A model generated the notes under the pieces. The model searched no databases. It worked only from the letters and a program-made list of their open reading frames with translations, and had not been told where the DNA came from. A program made the position numbers and the translations under genes. DNA of 64,000 bases from an uncultured Candidatus Rokubacteria bacterium (GTDB lineage: Bacteria > Methylomirabilota > Methylomirabilia > Rokubacteriales > DASRDR01), in NCBI GenBank assembly GCA_963708025.1, contig CAVPSB010000013.1, positions 160,001-224,000 of the forward strand, given 5' to 3'. Below, piece after piece: positions 5,016 to 30,596 of this stretch (positions are counted from its first letter, which is position 1; each line of letters begins with the position of its first letter).

Positions 5016-5276
5016 CTAGGCGCTCGTGCGCCACATCGTGCGTTGAACGACGAGCACACCGGCCGCACCGATGAACGCGACGACGACCATCGCGAAGAGC
5101 CCCGCTTCCGGTGACACCTCCAGGGCCCGGAGGACCAAGCTCGCGACGAGACTTCCGCCGAGACCGAGGCCGACGTCCGTGATCAACCCGTAGCCTCCGC
5201 GCTTGAGCACACACCCGGCCAATCCACTGGCAAGCAATCCTCCGAGCACCCAGATCAGCGACACGTGGAACGTCAT
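5016..5276 (-). CDS. GlsB/YeaQ/YmgE family membrane protein (second copy)
   Basis: WVLGGLLASGLAGCVLKRGGYGLITDVGLGLGGS; ATGA overlap with the GntR stop. Confidence 0.8.
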   Translation of the reverse strand: MTFHVSLIWVLGGLLASGLAGCVLKRGGYGLITDVGLGLGGSLVASLVLRALEVSPEAGLFAMVVVAFIGAAGVLVVQRTMWRTSA

Positions 5277-6352
5277 GACCCGTTCTCCTTCGTCCGTTTC
5301 ACCGTCTGACGTCCATGCGGGAGCTGGAGCCCGTGAACCCGGGGGCGCGGGCGCCGCTCAACCGGACGCCGACGGCGGGGCGTCCCTTCCCCGTTCTGTC
5401 GCACCAGGAGGGTCGCCAGCATTTCGATCGCGCGCTTGTCGAGCGCCCGGTCGTCGACGATGACCTCCGCACTGGAGCCGACGAGCAGCCGCACCCGCTC
5501 GGCCGCCGGAGTCGAGCAGACGATGACGTCGACCCGCCGCACGAGACGACCCAGCGCCGCTCCCTCTACCGGGCACGATCCCACGAACACGATATTCGGC
5601 AGCCCAGCATTGGCGATCGAGTGTTCCACGTTGTGGGCAGTCTCGGGCTCGGCCGAGGCCACCCCCACCCGCGTCCCCGGCGGCAGCTGGGCCAAGCGGT
5701 GGAGGGTCTCGAGATGCACCTCGGCCAGGAGCGCGATCACCGGGACGCCCAGGCCTCCCAGGCGTCGCTCGACGTCCGGGAGATGCACGAAGCTCGTCAC
5801 CGCAGCCGCCCAGCGCCCCGGCTGCTTCTTGCGCCGCGCGCTCACCGCCAGATCGACGAGCCGCACCTTCTCCACCCGAACCGGAAGCTGGGCCTCCAGC
5901 TCTCGGGCAAAGAAGTCGAGCTCGGACGGATTGCATTCCACCAACAGGATCTCGAGATCACCGCGCACGGCCGCCGGCCGGTCCTCGGTCAAGCTCAAGA
6001 CGCTGACTGCCAGCTGGTCGGCGGTCATCCCCAGGGCTGCGGCCCGGATCACCATGTCCTTCAGGAAGGCCGCTCGGAGGTGGGGAGCCGGGCGGGCCGG
6101 GAGATCCGCGGCCACGAACACGCCCGTTCCTCGTCGCGCCTCCACATAGCCGCTCTGTTTCAGATCTTCGATGACGCGCGCCACGGTATTGGGATTGACG
6201 CCCAGAAAGCCGGCCAGCTCCCGGATGCTCGGCAGGGGTCGATCCGGCGGGACGCCGCCGGCCTCGATGACATGCTTCAGCTGTTCCGTCAGCTGCCGGC
6301 GGATCGGGATCGGGCTGTGCGCGTCCACGTGGAGAGGCATCTGATTAATCAT
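5273..6352 (-). CDS. GntR family regulator (YtrA-type HTH + PlmA-like C-terminal domain), copy 1
   Basis: IPIRRQLTEQLKHVI..LPSIRELAGFLGVNPNTVARVIEDL..GYVEARRGTGVFV; long alpha/beta C-terminus. Confidence 0.9.
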   Translation of the reverse strand: MINQMPLHVDAHSPIPIRRQLTEQLKHVIEAGGVPPDRPLPSIRELAGFLGVNPNTVARVIEDLKQSGYVEARRGTGVFVAADLPARPAPHLRAAFLKDMVIRAAALGMTADQLAVSVLSLTEDRPAAVRGDLEILLVECNPSELDFFARELEAQLPVRVEKVRLVDLAVSARRKKQPGRWAAAVTSFVHLPDVERRLGGLGVPVIALLAEVHLETLHRLAQLPPGTRVGVASAEPETAHNVEHSIANAGLPNIVFVGSCPVEGAALGRLVRRVDVIVCSTPAAERVRLLVGSSAEVIVDDRALDKRAIEMLATLLVRQNGEGTPRRRRPVERRPRPRVHGLQLPHGRQTVKRTKENGS

Positions 6353-6354
6353 AC

Positions 6355-6374
6355 TGTAATACTACACTAGTACA
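6355..6374. promoter_or_regulatory. Operator 1 TGTAATAC-TACA-CTAGTACA overlapping the minus-strand promoter TTGACA-N17-TAGTGT of GntR copy 1
   Basis: Imperfect 20-bp inverted repeat ending 2 nt before the ATG at 6352. Confidence 0.8.
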
Positions 6375-6584
6375 GACAGCTCTCGCTGTCAATGCTCCCC
6401 GGGCGGGTGCCAGGAGCAGTCGCCCGTTGACGTCGGGAGTGCCAGGCTTGATCCCCTCGTGCTCCTCGAAGAGTCGCGCCAGCATCTCGACCACCTCATC
6501 CGCGGAATCGAAGATCGCTACGAGCGGCCGGGCTGAAGGGGAATGTGGCACGCTTCACTATTCCTCTCCGGCGAGTGCGCATCT

Positions 6585-6604
6585 CGTATTACATTGGTGG
6601 TACA
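6585..6604. promoter_or_regulatory. Operator 2 CGTATTAC-ATTG-GTGGTACA
   Basis: Same YGTA-N12-TACA geometry in an AT-rich intergenic patch. Confidence 0.65.
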
Positions 6605-6784
6605 GTGAGCCGGGGCAAAGCCAATCACGATGAGGAGTTCGGCCACGCCCTGGTACGAAGCAAAGCTGCGCGAGACGTGCAAGGGCTCGGAGTCTCCTCT
6701 GCGCGTGTCCGTCCGTCCACCTCGCTCACCGGTTCGAGAAAGAGCTCGCGCGGTTCGCCCCTCATTGTGCTCGTCGTCCGGCGA

Positions 6785-7045
6785 ATGGCCGGCAGGCTGG
6801 CGAAGGGAGAGCAGAGCTTGAGACCGAAGCGCACAAAGGCCGTACTTCCTGCAACTCCGCATCCGGTTGAATGCTCGACGAGTGATCGGGCTGTCCTGAT
6901 CGATGCCTACAAGGCCGGCCTGATCGTGGCATGGAAGCGCGATGCCGAGCGTGGATACCGCTTGACATTTGCCGATCGACCGGATGAGTACGTGGAGGTC
7001 ACGAAGCTCACTCGGTATCTCGAGAGGCTCAACGGCGCCTCCTGA
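6785..7045 (+). CDS. Small hypothetical protein (start uncertain)
   Basis: C-terminal part DRAVLIDAYKAGLIVAWKRDAERGYRLTF..EYVEV looks protein-like. Confidence 0.5.
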   Translation: MAGRLAKGEQSLRPKRTKAVLPATPHPVECSTSDRAVLIDAYKAGLIVAWKRDAERGYRLTFADRPDEYVEVTKLTRYLERLNGAS

Positions 7046-7162
7046 CCGCTGAGAGCGAACAGCGGGGCCATGCCGCAGATGGTCGGCCGACCTTCGACGA
7101 TGGAAAGCCGCCGCCCTTCGGCGCCGGTAGCCCGTTCGTCTCCTCGTCCTTGCCCGGGGATC

Positions 7163-7357
7163 CTAGGGCCGCATCCTAGGCGGATACCGGGGCTGCTCTT
7201 CGACGGTCGCCGTTCGCGTGTCGGAAACCGGCCGCCACTCCTTCTCGTCTGGGGTCAGCCACCACACGCGCCCGGTGTCGTCCAAGGCGTAGAGGACCGG
7301 ACTGCCGTCCGCTTTCTGGGTTGCAGCGATCTGAATGAATTTCGAGACCTGCTCCAT
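7163..7357 (-). CDS. Small hypothetical protein (64 aa)
   Basis: GGGAG RBS; FIQIAA..VLYALDDTGRVWW. Confidence 0.6.
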   Translation of the reverse strand: MEQVSKFIQIAATQKADGSPVLYALDDTGRVWWLTPDEKEWRPVSDTRTATVEEQPRYPPRMRP

Positions 7358-7625
7358 TCGGTCTCCCTTCCTGGGTCCAGGTAACTTTCAGCCGTCGCCG
7401 CTCAACCCGCCACGGTCAACGACAGACTCAGCGTCGCCCCCTTTGCGGCTCACTCCAGAGCTCAGTGTCGCGCTAGGTCGTACCCACGTGGCCTTCGAAA
7501 CCGAGATGAAGACAGGATCAGCGGCCAGGGCGGGTGATCGGCGTCGAGCATCGTCTGGTCCCTGATTGCCATCGTGAGCCGGCACACATCAGGCGCCCGC
7601 ACTCATCCGGTTTCCCGTATCGTCT

Positions 7626-8081
7626 TCACCACTGATCTCTGTATGCACGCCCCTGCGCCGGGGAGGCCGGTTGCTCTTGTCTGCGCCTCCACCCATTCGG
7701 CTCTGCGCCCACGGAGCCGACCGGGGGGCCCTCCCGCCTCGAATGAGCGAAAGGCGTCCACCAGTTGCCGAACGAGACGAGCGACAGCGCGAGCATGTTG
7801 AGCGCGATGGGCAAGACTTTGGGGGTGATCGGTTCGTCCGAGAACCAGTACGCGAGCGTGCCACTCGACAGCACGAGGACGAGCACGGCGGTTTTCGGCG
7901 GCCATGCGCGCCGCCACACGCGACCGAGAGCTTCACCTAGGTCGCCCTCGAGCCGTCTGTGGAGAATCACCCATGACACGAATCCGGCCACAAGGAGTGC
8001 CGGAATCCATCGATGCCACCACAGAACCGCGGCGACAATCAGCAGCACTGCGGCACGCTGCCTGCGTTCTGCGCCGCTCAC
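7626..8081 (-). CDS. Hypothetical membrane protein
   Basis: GTGA overlap with the upstream stop at 8078-8081; several hydrophobic helices. Confidence 0.6.
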   Translation of the reverse strand: MSGAERRQRAAVLLIVAAVLWWHRWIPALLVAGFVSWVILHRRLEGDLGEALGRVWRRAWPPKTAVLVLVLSSGTLAYWFSDEPITPKVLPIALNMLALSLVSFGNWWTPFAHSRREGPPVGSVGAEPNGWRRRQEQPASPAQGRAYRDQW

Positions 8082-8648: not shown

Positions 8649-8856
8649 AGGTTCTCCCGGTCGCGGTCAGAAACCCGACACGATGCCGCGCCGGCCCATC
8701 CTGACGTCCCATCGGCCCGCTCAGCCGCGGGCCCGGACGGCCCCCGCGCTGCCTCCCCACCTCTACCCTCGAGGCCAATAGGCGCCCGGGCCGGGACGGC
8801 GCCTTTCGGCGAGAACGAATCGACCGCCGGGCGAATCGCTTCGACCGGATCAGCAA
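8635..8856 (-). CDS. Possible small basic protein (73 aa)
   Basis: Fills the gap between operon genes with overlaps at both ends; Arg-rich, could be spurious. Confidence 0.3.
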   Translation of the reverse strand: MLIRSKRFARRSIRSRRKAPSRPGRLLASRVEVGRQRGGRPGPRLSGPMGRQDGPARHRVGFLTATGRTYADG

Positions 8857-9611
8857 GCTGGCGTCGCGACCTCCGACCCGCGAGGGAGCCCGATCGACGG
8901 GCCAACGACGACAATGAGCCGCGCGCTCACGAGGGCGCGAATCACGAGCCAGGACGGATCAAACTCGAGCCACTGCATACTGAATTTCGGGGCCCGCGGG
9001 TGAGCGTGATGATTGTTGTGCAGGGCCTCCCCTCCCGTCACCCACGCCAGAAGCCGCCAGTTGTACGCGCTGTTGGCGAACGTCTGCCCGCCGCGCCAGT
9101 GGCCGAGCCCGTTGATCAGGGGCGCGAACACCAGGACATACAGGATGGCGTGCCCGAGGCCGACGATCAATCCCGGCATCAAACCGAGGATCGAACAGAG
9201 CAGCCCGACACCGATCACCGGGCCCGCCCAGCCCCGAGAGAACAGCGCGCGATCCCACCGATCCGGCGGGAGGTCTGGGGCGAATCTCTGGAGCGTGTCC
9301 GGGTTCCGCGCTTCACGCGCGTAGTAGTATGCGTTCAGGAGCTGGACGCGCCACAAGCCGAGCAGGCGCGGGCTGTGCGGGTCGCCGGGCCGGTCCGTGA
9401 AGGTGTGGTGCTTGCGGTGCACGGCGACCCACTCCTGACGGCACTGGCCCGTGGTCAGCCAGAGCAGGGCCCGGAACAGCACGTCGGCCACCGGGTGCAC
9501 TACGAGCGCCCGATGCGCAAGCCCCCGATGCAGGTAGATCGAGGTGGCGATCACCGCAACCTGAGTGAGGACGATGGTGCCGAATGCAACCGTGAGGGCG
9601 TGAATGAACAC
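8850..9611 (-). CDS. Membrane acyl-CoA/fatty acid desaturase (delta9-like)
   Basis: Three His boxes HRGLAH, HRKHH, HNNHH; GDPHSP; EFDPSW. Confidence 0.93.
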   Translation of the reverse strand: MFIHALTVAFGTIVLTQVAVIATSIYLHRGLAHRALVVHPVADVLFRALLWLTTGQCRQEWVAVHRKHHTFTDRPGDPHSPRLLGLWRVQLLNAYYYAREARNPDTLQRFAPDLPPDRWDRALFSRGWAGPVIGVGLLCSILGLMPGLIVGLGHAILYVLVFAPLINGLGHWRGGQTFANSAYNWRLLAWVTGGEALHNNHHAHPRAPKFSMQWLEFDPSWLVIRALVSARLIVVVGPSIGLPRGSEVATPAC

Positions 9612-10012: not shown

Positions 10013-10291
10013 TCACGCAGCCGCATCACGGTCGGCTCCGCCGTTCCACGCGTGCTTCATGGACGCGGGGTCAGGCGCCATCGGACGGAGCCGCAGCGGC
10101 CGGTACCCGCTCCGCCCGAGATCCTCGATGGCGCGCGCGACTGCATCCGGATTGGCGCTCTCGCCGGCCAACACCCGGACGCGCGGCAGCGCTTGGTGTC
10201 GCGGGACGCCGCCCTCGACCCGAGACTCGATCCCTTCCATCGGCTGGTGGCGGACCACGATCGACCGGTCATCGTCAATGTGCAGTCGCAT
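10013..10291 (-). CDS. Degenerate HTH-only GntR paralog (92 aa)
   Basis: MRLHIDDDRSIVVRHQ..GGVPRHQALPRVRVLAG..NPDAVARAIEDLGRSGY aligns with the N-termini of the two full GntRs. Confidence 0.7.
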   Translation of the reverse strand: MRLHIDDDRSIVVRHQPMEGIESRVEGGVPRHQALPRVRVLAGESANPDAVARAIEDLGRSGYRPLRLRPMAPDPASMKHAWNGGADRDAAA

Positions 10292-10301
10292 CAGGCTATA
10301 C

Positions 10302-10321
10302 CGTACTAGTACGGTAGTACA
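10302..10321. promoter_or_regulatory. Operator 3 CGTACTAG-TACG-GTAGTACA overlapping the minus-strand promoter TTGACA(10339-10334)-N17-TACCGT
   Basis: Same promoter/operator register as operators 1 and 4; also overlaps a perfect 18-bp palindrome TACCGTACTAGTACGGTA (10299-10316). Confidence 0.8.
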
Positions 10322-10569
10322 CACTGCCGGGCCTGTCAAGCTCCGATTCCGATGGTCGTGCCCGCGCCAGGTCGGGTCCAGTCAAGAGCGCTTTCTATGG
10401 ACGCGTGCGCGACCGCGGCTCGACCCGCGGACGAAGCAGGCCTCGACGCGCGGGGAACCCCAGTCCCATGGCCACGGCGAGCCGGCACGCCTTGCGTCCG
10501 CGTCCAGGCCTGCGCTACGCTGGCGCGGCCTCGCAGCCGCCGCCAGCTGGCGCGCAGGCAAGAACTCCC

Positions 10570-15439: not shown

Positions 15440-17300
<1,861 letters not shown>

Positions 17301-17427
17301 AGCGGACGCTCACGACGACAATCACCCGGGAGAGCGGGTCACCTGGCGGGCGAGCCTCCGGCTCACCGCGATCGCGAGGTCGGCCCGCTCGGGATCTGTC
17401 GCTCAGCGCTTGACCAGGTGGTCATGG

Positions 17428-17447
17428 TGTACTATCTTATTCATACA
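17428..17447. promoter_or_regulatory. Operator 4 TGTACTAT-CTTA-TTCATACA overlapping promoter TTGACC(17410)-N17-TATCTT(17433)
   Basis: Ends 2 nt (GT) before ATG 17450, identical arrangement to GntR copy 1. Confidence 0.8.
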
Positions 17448-17449
17448 GT

Positions 17450-18535
17450 ATGAAGATTCCGATGCGCCTGCAAGTCGATGCGCACAGCCCGATCCCGATC
17501 CGCCGGCAACTGACGGAACAACTCAAACACCTCATCGAGGGCGGCGGCGTCCCGCCGGACCAGGCGCTGCCCAGCATCCGGGAGCTCGCCGGCTTCCTCG
17601 GCATCAATCCGAATACGGTCGCGCGCGTCGTCGAGGATCTGAAGCAGAGCGGCTATGTGGAGGCGCGGCGAGGCAAGGGCGTGTTCGTCGCGCCGGCGCC
17701 TCCCGCCCGCCCGGCTCCGATCCTCCGCGAACGCTTTCTGCGGGACATGGTGATCCGGGCGGCGGCCCTCGGGATGACCGCTGACGACCTCGCGGTGGGC
17801 GTCCTGAGTCTGACCGGGGTTCGGCCCCCGGCCGTCCGGAGGGGGATCGAGATCCTGTTGGTGGAATGCAGTCCGCCGGAGCTCGACTTCTTTGCCCGGG
17901 AACTGGAGTCCCACATCCCGGTCCACGTGGATAAGGTACTCCTCGGTGACCTGGCGACCGCAGTGCGGCGCCAGAAGCAAGCCGGTCGCTGGGGGGCGGC
18001 GGTCACGAGCTTCTTCCATCTCCCGGAGGTGGAGCGCCGCCTGGGCGGCCTGGAGATCCCGGTGATCGCGCTCCTCGCCGAGGTCCATCTCGAGACCCTC
18101 CACCACCTGGCCCAGTTTCCATCCGGGACCCGGGTGGGCGTGGCCTCCGCTCACGTCGAGACCGCCCACAACCTGGAGCACTCGATCGCCAACGCCGGGC
18201 TGCCGAACATCGCACTGGTGGGGACGTCTCCCGCCGAGGGGGCCAGTTTGGAGCGCCTGGTGCGGCGAGTGGACGTCATGGTTTGCTCCACCGCCGCCGC
18301 GGATCGAGTCCGGCAGCTGGCTGGCTCGGCCGTGCAGGTGCTCATCGACGACCGGGCACTCGATCCGCGGGCCATCCAGATGCTCGCGGCCCTCATGGTG
18401 CAGCAAGACGGCGATAAGCCGGACAACCCTCCCGCGCCCCGTCCGAAGGCAGCTGGGCTGTCGGTCCGCTCCGGGCGCCCCGCCCGGGGCGCCACGCGGA
18501 AGACCGCGGGAGCACGTCATGCGGAGAAGCCGTAA
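17450..18535 (+). CDS. GntR family regulator (YtrA-type HTH + PlmA-like C-terminal domain), copy 2
   Basis: Highly similar over its full length to 5273..6352. Confidence 0.9.
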   Translation: MKIPMRLQVDAHSPIPIRRQLTEQLKHLIEGGGVPPDQALPSIRELAGFLGINPNTVARVVEDLKQSGYVEARRGKGVFVAPAPPARPAPILRERFLRDMVIRAAALGMTADDLAVGVLSLTGVRPPAVRRGIEILLVECSPPELDFFARELESHIPVHVDKVLLGDLATAVRRQKQAGRWGAAVTSFFHLPEVERRLGGLEIPVIALLAEVHLETLHHLAQFPSGTRVGVASAHVETAHNLEHSIANAGLPNIALVGTSPAEGASLERLVRRVDVMVCSTAAADRVRQLAGSAVQVLIDDRALDPRAIQMLAALMVQQDGDKPDNPPAPRPKAAGLSVRSGRPARGATRKTAGARHAEKP

Positions 18536-18749: not shown

Positions 18750-21700
18750 ATGAGTCCCCCACCGTTGGACAAACCCTCCGAAGGGTCCCCCCTCGCCGCT
18801 CGCCCATCCGCGCCCAGCGGACAGGCCGCCGACATGCCGGGACTGAGAGCCAGGGCACTGTTCCGAGACTTGGGGTCGCGCGCGTTCTCGTCGGGATCGC
18901 TGCCTGACTCGCCAGGACCCAATCAGGGCGGAGCTCTTCAGCGCCGAGACGTCTCGAACAGCATGCGGAAAGCGTCGCCGCGCAGCGTGTCCACGCCGAG
19001 GGTGGGAGCGGACGCCCCCTCTCGCCGCGCGTGCGAGACAGCGGGCGCGTGCTGCTCCGATGCTATCGCGAGCTCGCCGCCGTGATCCGAGAGGAAGGCG
19101 CGATCACCCCGGCCGCGGAGTGGTTCGTCGACAACTTCCACATCGTGGAGGACGTCCTTCGAGAGGTCCGGGAGGATCTTCCTCCGGGATTCTACCGCCG
19201 GCTGCCAAAGCTCGCGGAGGGACCCCTCGAGGGCTACCCGCGGGTGCTCGGCCTGGCCTGGCCCTTCGTCGCCCACAGCGACAGCCGCTTCGAGCCCGAG
19301 ACCCTCCAGCGCTTCGTCCAGCGATTCCAGCGCGTCCAGGCGCTGACCATCGGCGAGCTGTGGGCCGTCCCGATCGCCCTGCGTCTGGTGCTCCTGGAGA
19401 ACCTCCGGCGCCTGGCCGAGCAGATCGTCAACGGCCGCGCTGCGCGCCGGGACGGCGGACGCGCTCGCGAACGAATTGCTCGGGCTCGGAGGGGAGCCGG
19501 CGCGCCGTCTGGCCTTTCGGCGGCTCGAGGCCGCTGCCCTGCCGATGGCCTTCACCGTGCAGCTCGTCCAGCGCCTGCGGGAGCAGGATCCCGAGTCGAC
19601 ACCGGCGCTCGCATGGCTCAGCGAACAGCTGTCCGGCCTGGGCACGTCGCCCGACGAGCTCGTGCGTCAGGAGCATCAGCGCCAGGCGGCGATGAACGTG
19701 ACGGTCCGCAACGTGATTACCAGCATGCGGACGATGTCGACGTTCGACTGGGCGGAGTTCTTCGAAAGCGTCAGTCTGGTCGATGCCGCGCTGCGCGCCG
19801 GGAGCGACTTCGGCGCGATGGACTTCAAGACGCGCGACCGATACCGTCACGCGATCGAGGACCTCGCTCGAGGTTCCCGGCGGACGGACATCGACGTCGC
19901 CCAGGAGGCGATCGCTCGAGCGAACGCGCGCCGCGTCGGAGCGGGAGCCGGCGGGCACCTCCGGCGGATCCCGGGTCGAGGATCCTGGCTACTACCTGAT
20001 CTCGAAGGGGCGCCGCGGCTTCGAACGGGAGATCGGCTACCGGGTCCCCGTCACGCAGTGGCTGCTGCGAGCCTACGTGGGCGGAGCCACGCCGGGCTAC
20101 CTGGGCACCATCGGCGTCATCGCGGGGTTGCTCGTGGTGGTTCCCTCTCGTCGCCACGCATGCCGCGGGCGTGAGCCCGCGTTGTGCTCGTTCTTCTCGG
20201 ACTCGCCGCCTTGATTCCGGCATCCGATCTCGCCGTCGCGCTCATCAATCGCTTCGTCACGGAGCTGCTCGGCCCCCGAGCGCTGCCGCGCCTCGAGCTC
20301 GCCGAGGGCATCCCGCCGACCCTGCGAACCCTCGTGGTGATGCCGACCTTGCTGGTGAGCGACGCCGAGATCGAGGAGCAGGTCAATCGCCTGGAGCTCC
20401 ACTATCTGGCGAATCTGGAGGGCGCCATCCACTTCGCTCTCCTCTCTGACTGGATCGACGCGCCGACGGAAACCATGCCGGCTGATGATCGGCTCCTCGA
20501 GGCCGCGATCGAGAGGATCGCCCGGCTCAACCGGCGCCATGGTCCCGCTCCCGACGCGGGGGCCCGATTCCTCTTGCTCCACCGCCGCCGGGTCTGGAAT
20601 GCCAGCGAGGGCCAGTGGATGGGATGGGAGCGCAAGCGCGGCAAGCTGCAGGAGCTCAACCAGTTGCTCCTGGGGCACGACGGCACGACGTTCATGGGGT
20701 CCCGGCTGGACGTGCCGCCTACGGTCCGATACGTGATCACCCTCGACGCGGACACGCGCCTGCCTCGAGGCGCCGCCATCCGCCTCGTCGGGACGATGGC
20801 CCATCCGCTCAACCGGCCTGTCTTCGATGCGCGCGTGGGCCGGGTCGTCGAGGGCTACGCGGTCCTTCAGCCGCGTGTCACTCCCACGATGCCCACCGAT
20901 CGCGACACGTCACTCTTCCAGCGGCTCACCGCCGGGCCGGCGGGGATCGATCCCTATGCGGCGGCGACCTCCGATGTCTACCAGGATCTCTTTGGAGGCG
21001 GCTCATACACCGGCAAGGGCATCTATGACGTCGAGGCATTTGCCGGGGCGCTGGAGGGTCGCGTACCCGAGAATGCGCTCCTCAGCCACGATCTGTTCGA
21101 GGGGATCTTCGCGCGGACGGGACTGGTCACCGACATCGAGCTCTTCGAGGAGTTCCCGACGGACTACGAGGTCGCTGCCGCCCGGCAGCATCGATGGGCG
21201 CGCGGCGACTGGCAACTGCTGCCCTGGATCGTCCGGGGGGCCGCCGGGGCCGGGACGCATCGAAGCTCCATCCCGCCGATCGATCAGTGGAAGATGGTGG
21301 ACAATCTCCGGCGCACTCTGTCGGCTCCGGCCGCGTGGCTGACGCTCGCCGCCGGCTGGACGCTTCCCCACCGCCTGCCGCTCGTGTGGACGACGTTCGT
21401 CCTCGCCACGATCGCAGTACCCGCCCTCCTGCCCGCGTTCGCCGAGGCGATCCCGAGGCGAGCGGGAATCTCCAAGCGGACCCACGTCCGCGCGGTCGGG
21501 CGGAGCTTCGCGCTGGCGGCCTCCCAGATTGCGCTGTGGATCACGTTCATGGCGCATCAGGCGTGGCTGATGGGCGACGCGATCGGGCGGACCCTGATCC
21601 GCGTGTATGGGACCCATCGACGGTTGCTCGAATGGATGACGGCCGCGCAGGCCAAGGCGGGACTGTCCCTCACGCTGGCCGGCGCCTATCGACGGATGCG

Positions 21701-24700
21701 TGGGGCGCTGATCCTGGCCGTCGTGGCCGGGATGTCGGTCGTCGCTCGTTCGGCCAGGCAGCTGGCCGATCGCCGTGCCGTTCCTCTTGCTGTGGGCCCT
21801 CTCGCCGCTCATCGCGCGATGGGTCAGCCGGCCCCCGCGCGTCGATCCGACGCAGGGGCTGTCGGCGTCGGATGCGAGGCTCCTCCGCTCGACCGCACGC
21901 CGCACGTGGCGGTTCTTCGAGGCGTTCGTCGGTCCCGGCGATACGTTCCTGCCGCCTGACAACTTCCAGGAGGACCCGGCGCCGGTCCTCGCCCACCGCA
22001 CGTCGCCGACCAACATCGGGCTGTACCTCGGGGCGATCGTCGCCGCCCGCGATCTCGGCTGGCTCGGGATGCTGGAGACCGTCGACCGGCTCGAGGCGAC
22101 GCTCGCGACGATGGGCCGGCTCGAGCGCTTTCGGGGCCACTTCTACAACTGGTATGAGACGACCGACCTTCGCCCGCTGGAGCCCCGCTACGTGTCCACG
22201 GTGGATAGCGGGAATCTGGCGAGCCAGCTCCTCGTTCTCGGGAATGCCTGTCGCGGGGCGCTCGAGCGCCCGCTACTCGATCGCGAAGCCTTCGCCGGAA
22301 TCGAGGACGCGGTATTGCTCGTGCGCGAGGCGGCGAGTGCCCTCGTGGATGACCGGCGCACGCAAACGGTCACGGCTCGGCCATCTGGACCAAGCCTGCG
22401 AGGCTCTGGTCATGACGCTTCGCGACCCACCCCGAACGGCGGCCGACTGGGTCGTCCGCTTGGGTCAGCTCGCCGGCCAGGCCGATGCCCTGGTGGACAT
22501 CGCACGCACGTTGACGGCGGAGCGCGGCGATGGCGAGGACTCGGACGTCCTCGTCTGGGCGCAGGCGACGCGCGCCACCATCGCGAGCCACCGGCGCGAC
22601 CTCGACCGGCTGATGCCGTGGGCATCCCACCTCGAGGCCGTCGTCGCCGATCTCTCCCCGCGTCCCGCGAGGCCGCGATCGCGAGCCGGGCCCTCTGTTC
22701 CTCGTTTCCCACCCTGGCCGCCCTGGCCGACCTCTGCGAGAGTGCGGTCAGCGAGCTCACGGCCATGCTCGACGGCCGCCCGCGCGCCGGGTCCGTCGCG
22801 TGGGGGTCGAGTCGAGCACGTCCACGAGCTCATCGGACAGCTGGAGGGCGCCGCCGTGGCGTCACGAGCGCTCGTCGAGCGCCTCTCCGCCATCGCCCGC
22901 GTCACGAAGCAGCTCTTCGATGCGATGGACTTTGGCTTCCTCTTCCACTCTGCGCGCAAGATCTTCTCGATCGGCTATCGCGTCACGGAGGGGAGTCTCG
23001 ATCCGAGCGCGTACGATCTCCTCGCCTCCGAAGCGCGGCTCGCGAGCTTCATCGCGATTGCCAACGGCGCGGCGCCCACGTCGCACTGGTTCCACCTGGG
23101 TCGCCCGATGACGCCCGTCGGGCTCGGGGCGGCGCTGGTGTCCTGGTCCGGCTCGATGTTCGAGTACCTGATGCCCGCGCTCGTCATGCAGGCGCCGCCG
23201 GGAAGCTTGCTCCAGCGGACGTATCGCCTCGTCGTCCAGCGTCAGATTGGGTACGGGGCGGAGCACGGGATTCCCTGGGGCATCTCCGAATCGGCGTACA
23301 ACGTGCGCGATCTCGACCTGACCTACCAGTATTCGAACTTCGGGGTTCCGGGTCTGGGTCTCGAGCGGGGCCTCAGCGAGGACTTGGTCGTCGCGCCCTA
23401 CGCGACCGCCCTGGCCGCCATGATCGACCCGGGTGCCGCCGCTCGCAACTTCACGCGCCTCATCGCGGTGGGCGGGAGGGGATTCTACGGCTTCTACGAG
23501 GCGCTGGACTACACGCCGTCCCGGCTCCCGGCGGGGACGACCGTGGCGATCGTTCGCGCCTACATGGCGCACCATCAGGGCATGACCCTCATCGCGCTGG
23601 CGAACGTGCTCCGAGATGGGGTGATGCGCGCGCGATTCCACGGCGAGCCCATCATCCAGGCGACCGAGCTTCTCTTGCAGGAGCGCGTGCCCCGGGACGT
23701 GGCGGTGGCGAGACCGCGGGCGGAAGAGGTGCAGGCGCCGGCCCATGTGCGGGAGTTCGTGGAGCCGTCCTTCCGGCAGTTCACGTCTCCGCACGACCCG
23801 ACGCCGCGGACGCACCTGCTCTCCAACGGCCGGTACACGGTGATGCTGACGACCGCGGGGTCGGGCTACAGCCGGTGCGCGGAGCTCGCCGTCACCCGAT
23901 GGCGGGAGGACGTCACCCGGGATCACTGGGGGACCTATCTCTTCCTGCGGGATGTCCAGAGCGGGGCGGTCTGGTCGGCGGGGTATCAGCCCACCGGCGT
24001 CGAGCCGGACGACTATCGCGTGACCTTCGCGGAGGACCGGGCCGAGTTGTATCGGCGCGATGGCGCCATCACGACCACGCTCGAGGTGCTGGTCTCGCCG
24101 GAGGACGACGCCGAGCTGCGGCGGGTGTCCGTCACGAACCTGGGGGGGCAGACGCGAGAGATCGAGCTGACCTCCTACGCCGAGCTCGTGCTGGCTCCGC
24201 CGGCGGCGGATACCGCGCACCAGGCCTTTTCCAGCCTCTTCGTCCAGACGGAATGGGTAGCCGATCTCGGGGCCCTGCTGGCGACCCGCCGTGGCCGGTC
24301 GGCGACGGAGCCGGCGATCTGGGCGGCCCACATCGTCGTCGTCGAAGGCCAGTCCGGTGGAGGGACTCAGTACGAGACCGACCGCGGGCGGTTCCTCGGC
24401 CGGGGTCGCGGGGTCCGCACCCCGATGTCGGTCATCGACGGGAGGCCCCTCTCGAACACGACCGGCTCGGTGCTCGATCCAATCTTCAGCCTCAGACGGC
24501 GAGTCCGTCTCGCGCCGGGAGAGAGCGCACGCCTGATCTTCTCCACGCTCGTCGGCCCGTCGCGCGAAGCCGCCGTGGCGCTCGCCGACAAGTATCGCGA
24601 CCCCGCGACGTTCGAGCGGACGGTCACGCTGGCCTGGACGCGGGCGCAGGTCCAGCTCAACCATCTCGGGGTTCGCGCGGACGAGGCCCGCCTGTTCCAG

Positions 24701-27656
24701 GATCTTGCGGGCCGGATTCTCTACGCGGACGCGACGCTTCGGCCCGCAGCGGATGGTGCTGCGGCAGAATGCGTCCGGGCCTGCGGCCCTGTGGGCCCAC
24801 GGGATCTCCGGCGACCTCCCGATCGTCCTGGTCCGCATCGACGAGCCGGAGGATCGAGGCATCGTCCGACAGCTCCTCCGCGCGCACGAGTACTGGCGCC
24901 TGAAGGGGCTGGCGGTCGATCTCGTCATTCTGAACGAGCGGGCGCACTCCTACACGGAGGAGCTCCAGGCGTCGCTGGAGACGCTGGTCCGGACGAGCCA
25001 GTCGGCGTCGCGGCACGAGGGGCACGAGACACACGGGAAGGTCTTCATCCTGCGGAAGGACCTGCTCAAGGCGCACGGAGCGCGATGCCCTGCAGACGGC
25101 CGCTCGAGCCATCCTCCTGAGTCGGCACGGCACGCTCGCGGAGCAGCTCGCGCGCGCCACGATCCGCTCCGAGCACGGCGGCCCCGCCCCGCCGCCGCCC
25201 GGCCCGAGCCCCAGTCCCCCGCCGACGCGCCGCCGGCCCGCCCGGAGTTCGAGTTCTTCAACGGGCTGGGGGGGTTCGTCGACGATGGGCGGGAGTACGT
25301 CACCGTCCTCGGGGAAGGGCAATGGACGCCCGCGCCCTGGATCAACGTCGTCGCGAATCCCGCGCTTCGGCTTCCAGGTCTCCGAGTGCGGGGCCGGCTA
25401 CACGTGGTCGCGCAACAGCCGGGAGAATCAGCTGACGGCGTGGTCCAACGATCCCGTCAGCGACCCGCCCGGGGAGACCATCTATGTCCGGGACGAAGAG
25501 ACCGGTGACCTGTGGGGCCCGACGCCGCTGCCCATCCGGGAGGACGCGTCGCCCTACGTCGCCCGGCATGGTCAGGGCTACAGCCGCTTCGAGCACACGT
25601 CCCATGGCATCTTCCTGAGTCTGCTCCAGTTCGTGCCGGTGAACGACCCGGTGAAGATCTCTCGGCTGAGGATCGAGAACCGATCCGGCAAGTCCCGGCG
25701 TCTGTCCGTGACCGCGTACGTCGAATGGGTCCTGGGAGTCTCGCGAAGCGCGACCGCGCCCGTCATCGTCACCGAGATCGATCCGGACACGGGTGCGCTG
25801 TTCGCGCGCAACCCGTGGAACATCGACTTCGGCGATCACGTGGCGTTCGCCGATCTCGGGGGTCGTCAGACCGCGTGGACCGGCGATCGGACGGAGGTCC
25901 TGGGTCGGAACGGAACACTCGATCATCCGGCGCTGCTGGAGCGAGGGGGCCGCCCGTCCGGCCGGGTCGGCGCCGGACTCGACCCCTGCGCGGCCCTGCA
26001 GACCGTGATCGAGGTGGCGCCCGGCGGGCGCGAGGAGATCGTGTTCTTCCTCGGTGAGGCCGCGACGGCCGCCGAGGCGCGCGGGCTGCTCACTCGCTAC
26101 CGGACAGCGGACCTCGATCTGACGTTGCAGGCCGTGAAGACTCGGTGGGACGACATCGTCGGCGCCATCCAGGTCAAGACGCCGGACCGCTCCGTGGACA
26201 TCATGCTCAACCGCTGGCTTCTCTACCAGACGCTCGCCTGCCGTGTCTGGGCCCGATCCGCCTTCTATCAGGCCGGGGGCGCGTACGGGTTTCGCGACCA
26301 GCTCCAGGACGTGATGGCCCTGACCGTCGCGAACCGGGAGGTCGCGCGGGAGCATCTCCTCCGGGCCGCCAGCCGCCAGTTCGTGGAGGGCGACGTGCAG
26401 CACTGGTGGCATCCCCCCTCCGGCCGGGGGGTGCGCACCCGGATCTCCGACGACGCGATCTGGTTGCCCTACGCCGTCACGCAGTACCTCGAGGCGACGG
26501 GCGATGCCGGCGTGCTCGACGAGGTCATCCCCTTCCTCGAAGGGCCCGTCCTCGCGACGGGGCAGCACGAGTCGTACTTCGAGCCCACGGTGTCCGCCGA
26601 GCACGGCACCGTGTTCGAGCACTGCGCCCGCGCGCTCGACCGGAGTCTCGCCATCGGCGCGCACGGCCTGCCCCTGATCGGTACGGGGGACTGGAACGAC
26701 GGCCTGAACCGCGTCGGCCCCGAGGGGCATGGAGAGAGCGTGTGGCTCGGCTGGTTCCTGCACACGACCCTCTGGGAGTTCGCGCGGTGGGCCGATGCCC
26801 GCGGCGAGCGCGGGCGCGCCGACAGGTGGCGCGGCCACGTCGACATCCTGAAGACCTCGCTCGAGGAGCAGGCGTGGGACGGGGACTGGTATCGTCGCGC
26901 CTTCTTCGACGACGGGACCCCCCTCGGGTCCGTCGTCAACGCGGAGTGCCGCATCGATTCCATCGCGCAGTCGTGGGGGGTGCTCTCGGGCGCCGCCGAG
27001 CCCGAAGCGCGCGGCGCGCGCGATGGCGGCCGTCGAGGAGTATCTCGTGCGGCGAGGTCAGGAGCTGGTCCTCCTGTTCACGCCCCCGTTCGACCGCGCG
27101 CCTGTCGACCCCGGCTACATCAAGGGCTACCCGCCGGGCGTGCGCGAGAACGGCGGCCAGTATACCCATGCCGCGATCTGGTCGGTGATGGCGTTCGCGG
27201 CGCTCGGTGACGGCGACAAGGCCAACGAGCTCTTCTCGATCCTGAACCCGATCAACCGCGCGAGCACGCGGGCGGGAGTCCACCGGTACAAGGTGGAGCC
27301 CTACGTGGCGGCCGCCGACGTCTATGCCGAGTCCCCGCACGTCGGCCGCGGAGGATGGACGTGGTATACGGGCTCCGCGGGCTGGATGTACCGCGCGGGG
27401 ATCGAGTGGCTCCTCGGGTTCCGGCTGCGTGGCGCGGTGCTTCACCTCGACCCCTGCATCCCGCGCGCGTGGCGACGCTTCGAGATCGCGTTCCGCTACC
27501 ACGGGTCGCGCTACGAGATCACGGTCGAGAACCCCCGCGGGGTGACGCGGGGCATCGCCCGATCGAGGTCGATGGACCCTCCTCGCGTCCGGCAGCGCGA
27601 GCCTCCCGTTGACCGCGGATGGCGCGACGCATCGCGTGCGCGTCGTCCTCGGATGA
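18750..27656 (+). CDS. ndvB: Cyclic beta-1,2-glucan synthase (NdvB/ChvB/Cgs-like: GT84 + glycoamylase-like + GH94), many frameshifts; start approximate
   Basis: IRAELFS, AAEWFVDNF, WMGWERKRGKL, YVITLDADT, SHDLFEG, RQHRWARGDWQ, PPDNFQE, YDLLASEARL, PWGISES, QAGGAYGFRDQLQD, GDWNDG, RENGGQYTHA, WYTGSAGW; ends RVVLG-TGA at 27656. Confidence 0.92.
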
Positions 27657-27754
27657 GAGCTCCGACCAGGGCAGTCACCAGGCTGATCACCAGGCCGCCA
27701 CGAAGACTCCGATGATCAGCGGCGATTACGAGGGCGTCCCTTCGGACGCCTCCG

Positions 27755-28045
27755 TCACACTCGTCCGCTTGCTGGTGCTGGGCGAATCGTCTCCTGCCCC
27801 GCTCGCAGAGCCTCGCTGACGTGCTCCGTCGCGTCCTGCACGGCTTCCTCAGCGCGCCGTAAGGTGTCCCCACCGCGATCGACCAGCTTGCCGAGCCTCT
27901 CCCCTACTCCCTGAACGCCTTCCGCGGCTTTCGTGCGCACCGCGCGCGATCCCTCCCCCAGATAGTCCTCGATCTCCTTCCCCCAGAACCATACGGCGAC
28001 TGCACCGGTGATCGCTCCCAAGACGAACACTTCACTCGTTCGCAT
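27755..28045 (-). CDS. YtxH-like general stress protein
   Basis: FVLGAITGAVAVWFW followed by an amphipathic coiled region; AAGGAGG RBS. Confidence 0.6.
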   Translation of the reverse strand: MRTSEVFVLGAITGAVAVWFWGKEIEDYLGEGSRAVRTKAAEGVQGVGERLGKLVDRGGDTLRRAEEAVQDATEHVSEALRAGQETIRPAPASGRV

Positions 28046-28097
28046 CGCGGGTCCTCCTTAGTTGCAAGACTTGAACTTCCCTACGCGGATCCATGTC

Positions 28098-28259
28098 TCA
28101 GCGCCGCTCTCTGCGACGTCGCCGTCGTGCGGCCGTGCGACCCGGAAATCGCGCCGTCCCCGGATGCCTGCTTCCTTTCCCGAAGCCGGGATGGCATTCG
28201 GGTCGGCAAAACGGCCCCTCGCCCGTAAACTCCTTCTTGCAGGTGTCACACTGCGCCAT
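28098..28259 (-). CDS. Small Cys4 Zn-binding protein with Arg-rich tail (53 aa)
   Basis: GGAGG RBS; MAQCDTCKKEFTGEGPFCRPEC...RRRRRRERR. Confidence 0.6.
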   Translation of the reverse strand: MAQCDTCKKEFTGEGPFCRPECHPGFGKGSRHPGTARFPGRTAARRRRRRERR

Positions 28260-28423
28260 TGTTGAATCCTCCACGAGACTGGTTCGCGACGACCATCGCT
28301 GGGCTGGGCCGGGCTCACCAGACGCCCGCGCCCTCGCTGACGTGCTCGAGTTGCTCCGCCAGGGTCCAGCGGACCGGGACCGGGTTGGGCGTCTCGCCTT
28401 GCGGGTGCATCGACCGCTCGTAC

Positions 28424-28443
28424 TGTACCATAGTTCTAGTACA
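28424..28443. promoter_or_regulatory. Operator 5 TGTACCAT-AGTT-CTAGTACA
   Basis: Same consensus, in the divergent Zn-finger/groES intergenic region. Confidence 0.75.
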
Positions 28444-28527
28444 CTCCGTACAACCCATCGAGCCCCCAAGCCGAGGGGCCGCGAGCGTCGCCCGCTCGCC
28501 GTGGGGCCCGGGGCTCACGTTGCTCGA

Positions 28528-28556
28528 TTGCCACTGTACTACTTTAGTGGTACACT
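28528..28556 (+). promoter_or_regulatory. groES promoter TTGCCA-N17-TACACT overlapped by operator 6 TGTACTAC-TTTA-GTGGTACA (28535-28554)
   Basis: Near-consensus sigma70 promoter; the operator spans the spacer and part of the -10. Confidence 0.85.
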
Positions 28557-28618
28557 GACAAGTGCGGCAAGATTTCACCTGCATCGCACACCCCCTCGCC
28601 GAAGGAGGCACTCGCACC

Positions 28619-28927
28619 ATGACTCAGGCAACGAAGACGAAGCTCCGCCCGCTCCACGACCGTGTCCTCGTCAAGCGTGTTGACGAAGAGGAAGTCCGCC
28701 GCGGCGGCATCATCATCCCGGACAGCGCGAAGGAGAAGCCCCAGGAGGGCAAGGTGATGGCCGTCGGCACCGGCAAGGTGACCGAGGACGGCAAGAAGAT
28801 CCCGCTCGACGTCAAGGCGGGCGATCGGATCCTGTTCGGGAAGTACTCCGGCAGCGAGGTCAAGATCGACGACCAGGAGTACCTCATCATGAAGGAGGAG
28901 GACGTCCTCGGCATCCTCGGAGCATGA
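28619..28927 (+). CDS. groES: Co-chaperonin GroES
   Basis: [44 protein letters not shown]. Confidence 0.98.
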
Positions 28928-28982
28928 ACGAACGGCCCCGCCGTCGCAACCATCTTCTGGACAACCTAGGAGGACCGATCTA

Positions 28983-30596
<1,614 letters not shown>

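Follow-up and report, generated by a model that had tools for sequence, protein, structure and literature searches.

We analyzed a 64,000-nucleotide stretch of an uncultured Candidatus Rokubacteria genome (hereafter the window; G000:C13:160001-224000) that carries genes for two paralogous GntR-type regulators, R1 and R2, a groES-groEL operon, and several copies of a palindrome, the putative operator, at the promoters of these genes. The assembly (8.17 Mb in 49 contigs) has a completeness of 99.67% and a contamination of 8.18%, so that copies found on other contigs may not all stem from the same cell. R1 and R2 share 77% identity (tblastn), and a third intact paralog, R3, is present on contig C10 (213046-214056; 73% identical to R2). 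Among the matches listed, the named closest homologs of R2 belong to metagenome-assembled genomes of Candidatus Rokubacteria or Rokuibacteriota. The regulators, the operators and the chaperonin operon are arranged as follows.

17450..18535, plus strand: R2, GntR regulator of 361 amino acids (open reading frame (ORF), Pfam GntR match, AlphaFold2 (AF2) model).
17410..17438, plus strand: sigma-70-like R2 promoter, TTGACC-17-TATCTT (promoter scan).
17428..17447, no strand: operator TGTACTATCTTATTCATACA, 28.4 bits, overlapping the -10 element and the likely R2 transcription start.
5273..6352, minus strand: R1, GntR regulator of 359 amino acids, paralog of R2 (ORF, Pfam GntR match).
6355..6374, no strand: operator TGTAATACTACACTAGTACA, 33.7 bits, 2 nt upstream of the R1 ATG.
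6585..6604, no strand: weak operator-like site CGTATTACATTGGTGGTACA, 23.8 bits, resembling the groES-type operator.
10302..10321, no strand: operator CGTACTAGTACGGTAGTACA, 28.7 bits, preceded by TTGACA and facing a decayed regulator remnant.
28424..28443, no strand: operator TGTACCATAGTTCTAGTACA, 30.0 bits, facing a 31-codon remnant ORF.
28528..28556, plus strand: groES promoter, TTGCCA-17-TACACT, with TG before the -10 (promoter scan).
28535..28554, no strand: operator TGTACTACTTTAGTGGTACA, 33.4 bits, inside the groES promoter (spacer and -10).
28619..28927, plus strand: groES, forming with groEL the presumed regulated operon.
28983..30596, plus strand: groEL, same operon.

The pattern TGTA-N12-TACA was found four times in the window against 0.02 expected from shuffled sequence: each regulator has one copy 2-3 nt before its start codon, and two copies precede groES. 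Refining the consensus to TGTACTA-N6-TAGTACA and allowing up to 3 mismatches gave six sites, against 0.04 expected. Position weight matrix (PWM) scores were bimodal, the six sites scoring 23.8-33.7 bits and the next best 10.7 bits, and only 10 sites in the entire 8.17-Mb genome reached 22 bits or more. Upstream of groES, the promoter-embedded operator lies 65 nt from the gene, and the position of the site at 28424-28443 matches that of the regulator-proximal operator of relatives. The weak site at 6585-6604 is possibly a relic of a lost divergent promoter. The PWM found no operator in the window upstream of ftsH, the gene directly preceding R2, and none lies directly upstream of R3.

Since the R2 ATG at 17450 is only 12 nt past the -10, the R2 mRNA would be leaderless or nearly so. 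A comparable R1 promoter, TTGACA-17-TAGTGT on the minus strand, was recognized by eye and was not called by the promoter scan. RNA libraries contained only short contigs of relatives, none starting before ~17430, and such contigs cannot reveal transcription starts; no sequencing run held half or more of the sampled words of the window (best share 0.39).

The presence of these operators on groESL promoters is the main biological point of the locus, and is absent from the first-pass annotation of this DNA. The genome encodes one HrcA (contig C38) and four groES genes. CIRCE is found upstream of two of them (perfect on C2, with one mismatch on C4), and the copies in the window and on C34 carry the GntR-type operator instead; no CIRCE was found upstream of the window groES. 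The four corresponding GroEL copies (C2:36038-37657, C4:18740-20344, C34:211213-212817 and window 28983-30596) are 90-93% identical, and a fifth, orphan groEL (C2:321897-323480) is 61% identical. Part of this multiplicity may stem from a mixed bin, given the contamination noted above.

The same arrangement recurs in relatives. R2 matches at E<=1e-20 were obtained in 65 of 121 genomes of the phylum, and we examined 29 loci carrying close orthologs. An operator was present within ~40 nt of the regulator start at 23 of them, with a second operator ~40 bp further upstream at most of the 29. The groES-groEL genes were divergent from the regulator at 12 loci (only groEL being detected at one), and ftsH lay upstream of it at two. 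Omitting two loci from unpublished genomes (L052, L062) left these counts at 22/27, 12/27 and 2/27, respectively. Both ftsH genomes have an operator-type site ~2.3-2.5 kb upstream of the regulator's own sites, presumably where ftsH starts. Five good-quality relatives together contained 13 groES loci, of which 6 were of CIRCE type, 6 of operator type and 1 neither, with none carrying both; each of the five genomes had at least one groES of each type. Neither groES, groEL nor ftsH was found near the family gene at any of 27 Acidobacteriota or 30 Cyanobacteriota loci. As the exact operator was likewise missing upstream of the family genes there (0 of 16 and 0 of 28), both operator and chaperonin linkage are specific to the Rokubacteria lineage.

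We consider it likely that R1 and R2 are dimeric GntR repressors of their own genes and of one groES-groEL class, equipped with a signal-sensing domain. A different explanation is that the palindrome is bound by another factor, or is a promoter or mobile-module feature that travels with the regulator gene, R1 and R2 exerting their regulation otherwise. Operator-promoter modules do stand beside decayed regulator remnants (window 10302 and 28424, and on C10, C25 and C34), which indicates that the module was duplicated as a unit, and throughout the phylum the loose form of the pattern is also matched by an unrelated palindrome. GntR repressors usually have their autoregulatory sites next to the start codon. 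The regulator-side sites found here have this position and share one consensus with the groES-side sites, and their GT...AC arms are typical of GntR operators. Among the matches listed, AT-centred sites of this type occurred in 13 genomes with a close R2 ortholog (one of them unpublished), against a single borderline site in a genome without one (G087). These observations make binding by another factor unlikely.

The unrelated palindrome, TGTACCGACCGGTCGGTACA, is GC-centred and confounds searches of the 121 phylum genomes with the loose pattern TGTAC-N10-GTACA. About one copy per genome is present in many genomes of the phylum (for example at G125:C8:8398-8417), also in some that lack an R2 ortholog, and this palindrome is probably the operator of another conserved regulator.

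R1 and R2 belong to the GntR superfamily, the winged helix-turn-helix (wHTH) of Pfam PF00392 matching residues 19-80 with E values of 4.8e-13 and 5.4e-13 (49 bits, against a cut-off of 27 bits). Local Pfam and NCBIfam models matched nothing in the remaining ~280 residues, and the HrcA model (PF01628) did not match R2 even at E<=1. The AF2 model of R2, built from a 76-row alignment (mean pLDDT 87.7), divides the protein into four parts. The wHTH is followed by helices at 90-106 and 111-121, and residues 6-123 superpose on the YtrA-type structures 3neu, 4r1h and 3by6. Residues 134-321 form two beta-alpha-beta lobes, with strands at 134-139, 159-164, 181-187 and 205-208 in lobe 1 and at 227-233, 254-261, 276-279 and 296-299 in lobe 2; we refer to residues ~131-325 as the sensor domain. 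From ~325 onward the tail is disordered and Pro/Arg-rich. The first-pass annotation had described two GntR proteins of ~360 amino acids with a two-lobed alpha/beta region after the HTH and had called them YtrA-derived. The ORFs, the model and the superposition agree with this description, and all the motifs quoted in its support (ILLVEC, ELE..PV.V, VTSF.H..VE, LP.GTRVGVAS, LVRRVDV.VCS, LD.RAI.ML) are present in the stated order. R2 thus has the wHTH and the two dimer-forming helices of a YtrA regulator, the latter making up the core of the modelled dimer. YtrA proteins are defined as short and devoid of any further effector domain, and in this respect R2, with an additional folded domain of ~200 amino acids at 131-325, is not one of them.

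The R2 homodimer model scored 0.52, against 0.00 for the best control. Among proteins with solved structures, 20 of 30 pairs reach this mark, compared with 1 of 23 single chains. Contacts agreed to at least 96% between runs and the partner pLDDT was at least 81. The modelled interface is centred on helices 92-130, with further contacts at 187-193, 207-225, 240-253 and 303-320. Because YtrA-type dimers have already been solved, success in this test may partly reflect likeness to them.

Foldseek matches of the full-length model were dominated by the HTH, and phmmer against PDB sequences returned only HTH matches for R2, with no chain named PlmA. In structure searches the C-domain matched two-lobed domains of the periplasmic binding protein (PBP)/LacI type and of the PrpR_N type, at middling Z and 7-15% identity.

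The first-pass annotation had further placed R1 and R2 in the subfamily of PlmA, a GntR regulator of cyanobacteria, and had made this depend on a significant profile or structural match between the C-terminal domains. To obtain a PlmA query, we searched genome contigs with the published primer C307A-R for sll1961 (PMC5923263). The primer matched Synechocystis salina LEGE 00031, in an ORF of 346 amino acids starting MLQFQ (L019:1878-2918, minus strand) that has Cys124, Cys229 and Cys307 exactly as PMC5923263 describes for Sll1961. BLASTP aligned R2 residues 5-289 with residues 33-321 of this protein (27% identity, E 2e-16, HTH included). Peptide motifs of Sll1961 taken from published primers identified no PlmA among the top 150 representatives.

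Alignments of both families were then compared without the HTH. The PlmA set was drawn from 81 Cyanobacteriota genomes, 31 of which matched at E<=1e-10, and comprised 28 orthologs with 55-100% identity to the query. The R2-family set comprised 47 full-length representatives from a search of 1.84 billion proteins with a C-domain-only profile, which yielded 380 clusters at 50% identity for E<=1e-3, 152 for E<=1e-10 and 32 for E<=1e-30. C-domain-only hhalign matched the R2 family to PlmA with a probability of 98.7% and an E value of 3.6e-16 over 214 of ~240 columns, and removing R2 from the family profile did not change the match. A narrow profile restricted to Rokubacteria still gave 94.8% and E 5e-8. 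Controls were far weaker, with E 0.054 for the reversed PlmA alignment and 0.11-0.88 for eight column shuffles; a shallow comparison of the three paralogs with one PlmA was also weak (25.5%, E 7.5e-4). The order of secondary-structure elements is identical in the AF2 models of R2 and PlmA, and the PlmA C-domain matched PBP/LacI-type and CheY-like folds. The match on which the proposal depended was thus obtained, and sequence profiles indicate remote homology between the sensor-domain family of R1 and R2 and the C-terminal domain of PlmA from cyanobacteria. The two-domain architecture of R2 extends to Acidobacteriota, where 25 of 151 sampled genomes (one unpublished) yielded at least 26 matches that span both domains. 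In three single genomes from other phyla, searched by alignment, no family match was obtained.

By the type of their C-terminal domain R1 and R2 fit the PlmA subfamily, but they are not members of the PlmA clade, and here the phylogeny contradicted the first-pass annotation. In a maximum-likelihood tree of 81 rows, all 13 PlmA orthologs included formed one clade (SH-aLRT 100) on a long stem of 1.3 changes per column. Its nearest neighbours were two other Cyanobacteriota proteins and an Acidobacteriota group, a join flagged as long branches meeting. R1, R2 and R3 formed a separate clade (support 100) nested among non-cyanobacterial metagenome representatives. In the alignment R2 was 18-21% identical to the PlmA rows and 22-41% identical to the family representatives. 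Glu139, Cys140 and His190 were invariant in 123 of 123 rows of the R2 clade and in 47 of 47 representatives (170/170), and were absent from all 13 PlmA rows, in which position 190 is Phe; Thr186 was common to all groups, PlmA included. Conversely, the PlmA stretch ...IIC(307)SE... paired in hhalign with ...VLIDD... of R2, which has no Cys there.

These data bear on the idea that R1 and R2 are functional equivalents of PlmA, that is, orthologs whose activity depends on a complex of the PII-PipX type and on a disulfide of the Cys229-Cys307 type targeted by thioredoxin. The homologous C-domains and the common overall architecture and length speak for it, as does the dimeric state given for PlmA in PMC5923263. 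Yet a search for PipX (PF12058) matched the S. elongatus control and found nothing in this genome, which is 99.67% complete, so the PII-PipX partnership suggested by the first-pass annotation cannot be carried over. The conserved Cys307 of PlmA, which PMC5923263 reports to be used in thioredoxin interaction, is missing. The window proteins are not the sister group of PlmA, and their identity to it (18-21% aligned, 27% by BLASTP) and their clade place them outside the orthologs as delimited by Labella et al. 2016. Finally, none of 30 cyanobacterial loci had groES, groEL or ftsH nearby. Functional equivalence is thus largely refuted and, in our judgement, very improbable; from their sequences, R1 and R2 are not PlmA orthologs.

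The sensor domain appears instead to belong to a widespread family catalogued in Pfam 38.1 as PF27163 (YmtS_Ross). Precomputed PF27163 hits are carried by 69 of the 120 close homologs listed, including the 94%-identical P0001, and by 56% of the members of the nearest Atlas cluster (score 0.91), against none of the 120 PlmA homologs listed. Literature searches, which left most subscription journals outside, found nothing on the function of PF27163/YmtS_Ross, 'YmtS' being otherwise in unrelated use, and nothing on a GntR-family groESL repressor or on any Rokubacteria GntR.

The operator sequence differs as well. The first-pass annotation had offered it as a candidate binding motif for the wider family, and this did not hold in other phyla: the exact operator was found upstream of the family gene in 0 of 28 cyanobacterial plmA regions and 0 of 16 Acidobacteriota loci. 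Several plmA genes (L035, L038, L041, L048) have, by eye, GGTAG-N(~20)-CTACC just before the ribosome-binding site, which may be a PlmA autoregulatory site distinct from TGTACTA-N6-TAGTACA.

The build of the proteins, their homology, the placing of the operators and the conserved groESL linkage are shown by the data above, from which the identity of the binding protein, the direction of regulation and the nature of the signal are inferred. We propose the following mechanism for repression by R1 and R2. Each protein would combine a YtrA-type DNA-binding and dimerisation module (~1-123) with a PBP-like (Rossmann-like) sensor (~131-325) and the disordered tail, and each dimer would bind the 20-bp palindrome TGTACTA-N6-TAGTACA. 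On the near-leaderless promoters of the regulators themselves, the dimer would cover the -10/start region and bring about self-repression; at one class of groES-groEL promoters, where it would sit in the spacer and -10, it would block RNA polymerase. Repression is proposed because the palindrome overlaps the -10/start region, and negative autoregulation because the same site is present on the regulator's own promoter; given the position and conservation of the site, both should occur. A signal received by the sensor domain would then lift repression.

R2 might, by contrast, be an activator or a dual regulator, as is reported for PMM1637, a PlmA homolog, at CGRE1 in the yfr2 promoters. PMC6191309 places the start of the Prochlorococcus PlmA-homolog repeat mostly 55-57 nt upstream of the transcription start, a distance typical of activation. 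Every well-placed site found here, however, overlaps a predicted -10 or spacer or abuts the ATG, a geometry that would occlude RNA polymerase, and we hold activation by R2 to be improbable.

The likeliest site for receiving the signal would be the invariant Glu139-Cys140...His190, located at the C-terminal ends of lobe-1 strands 1 and 3. In flavodoxin-like folds, ligands or phosphoryl groups are usually bound at such strand ends, and since Glu-Cys...His sits at this place, a small-molecule, metal or thiol-based switch is our leading guess, though a tentative one, with sensing through a protein partner or through folding as alternatives. Folds resembling PBP, LacI and PrpR_N usually bind ligands between their lobes. 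Identity in 170 of 170 diverse rows is also more to be expected of residues in a chemical site than of residues in a packing surface. These two points argue against a C-domain without small-molecule ligand, which would serve only for oligomerisation or contacts with proteins, or would itself sense temperature or folding, for instance by GroEL titration as proposed for HrcA. Such a role nevertheless deserves some credence, if clearly less than an even share: the C-domain segments contributing to the modelled dimer interface include His190, the chaperone, protease and desaturase genes of the regulon are temperature-linked, and PMC5083789 describes PlmA as acting through protein partners.

Decayed copies of the regulator and other neighbouring genes lie around these elements in the window.

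10013..10339, minus strand: decayed HTH-only regulator remnant, 49% identical to R2 residues 5-69.
28315..28410, minus strand: 31-codon ORF whose start resembles the regulator N-terminus by eye (PVPVRWTLAEQLEHV versus PIPIRRQLTEQLKHL).
15440..17300, plus strand: ftsH, on the same strand as R2 and directly upstream of it, in two frames in the assembly.
5016..5276, minus strand: small membrane protein of 86 amino acids, directly downstream of R1 and overlapping its stop.
8850..9611, minus strand: fatty-acid desaturase, downstream of the remnant at 10013-10339 and on the same strand.

To judge from its sequence, the 31-codon ORF probably remains from a regulator that was once transcribed divergently from groES. 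In all, at least six decayed or truncated regulator 5' ends were identified, two in the window and the others on C10 (214903-215226), C25 (~260635-260853), C34 (213528-213560) and C35 (~64724-64862). Five of them keep the TTGACA promoter and the operator, those outside the window facing the remnants on C10 and, near 260659 and 213550, on C25 and C34; no operator was seen upstream of the C35 copy. This retention indicates that a module of promoter, operator and gene start was repeatedly duplicated and eroded. The C10 copy looks like an internal deletion joining the N- and C-termini. The remnant promoter on C34 is divergent from the second operator-type groES, and two ORFs resembling response-regulator receivers (by eye) follow it at C34:213621-214528.

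The small membrane protein is likely co-transcribed with R1. Homologs of 86-104 amino acids directly follow the regulator at L052, L063, L072, L073 and L077, one of them matching Pfam Transgly_assoc (GlsB/YeaQ-like), and a GlsB-like small membrane protein lies between the decayed copy and R3 (C10:214655-215122). The desaturase is a possible target of the operator at 10302, and desaturases neighbour the regulator at L062, L071 and L079. Other neighbours in relatives are an RRM RNA-binding protein (L079), VIT1 (L063) and a protein of metallo-beta-lactamase fold (L064). Together, groESL and, in relatives, ftsH, the desaturase and the GlsB-like protein look like a protein and membrane stress set operating alongside HrcA/CIRCE.

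The window ftsH appears frameshifted in the assembly, with a break at ~15600: the N-terminal membrane part is in frame from 15440, and the AAA and M41 domains from 15609. A very large gene resembling GH94, glucoamylase and cyclic beta-1,2-glucan synthase is spread over at least four overlapping frames at 19031-27715 (beginning at 19031, 20184, 21194/21775, 25285 and 27023), which points to indel errors or a decayed gene. A PEPCK C-domain match also ends early, at profile position 286/357. G+C content is lower (0.64 versus ~0.70) at 6001-8000, beside R1, where no convincing gene was seen, and at 28001-30000, which corresponds to the groESL operon.

Taken together, these results point to a previously undescribed way of controlling groESL, through a GntR repressor that would control its own gene, has an unusual sensor domain and would act on an unexpected target. 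The sensor family is already catalogued in Pfam 38.1; what is new is the target, the groESL promoters. If confirmed, a GntR-type groESL repressor would be a new regulator type in bacterial heat-shock control, and would explain how duplicated, near-identical chaperonins (90-93%) are differentially controlled in an uncultured soil phylum. A bolder version, which we would sooner doubt than accept, is that of a new class of stress regulator: a second groESL set, and in relatives also ftsH, a membrane desaturase and a GlsB-like protein, would respond, in parallel to HrcA/CIRCE, to a chemical or thiol/metal signal at Glu-Cys...His, and PlmA would be a divergent offshoot that lost this site and gained PII-PipX control. 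PlmA as an offshoot of the R2 family would give PlmA research a structural and evolutionary frame. The large cross-phylum family (380 clusters) provides the PlmA domain with comparative data, a fold class and candidate functional residues.

Among known systems, PlmA (Sll1961/Synpcc7942_0090/PMM1637) is the closest in build. It has the same three-part architecture and length, a homologous C-domain with the same order of elements, and it is a dimer, as R2 is modelled to be. According to PMC5083789, it occurs in all cyanobacteria and nowhere else, is essential in S. elongatus, and has an effector domain that could not be modelled for want of an adequate template. The only defined DNA element given for it (PMC6191309) is CGRE1 of picocyanobacteria, an inverted repeat of 21-22 nt; CGRE1 and the R1/R2 sites are both inverted repeats of 20-22 nt with widely spaced arms. 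PlmA differs in forming a separate clade, in having Cys307 and lacking Glu139, Cys140 and His190, in giving no PF27163 hit, and in having another operator sequence and no chaperonin linkage. Proteins of the YtrA subfamily (3neu, 4r1h, 3by6, 6sbs) end ~120-130 amino acids in, after the two helices, whereas R1 and R2 add the ~200-residue sensor. To sensor domains of the PBP/LacI and PrpR_N types the likeness is one of fold only, with no shared ligand residues identified. In function the nearest parallel is HrcA-CIRCE, in which a repressor palindrome likewise overlaps the groES promoter. HrcA is an unrelated protein family, CIRCE (TTAGCACTC-N9-GAGTGCTAA) differs from TGTACTA-N6-TAGTACA, and, unlike in the HrcA-CIRCE system, the gene of an R1/R2-type regulator is usually divergent from groES and would be autoregulated. 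The two systems coexist on different groES copies, both in this genome and in all five relatives examined.

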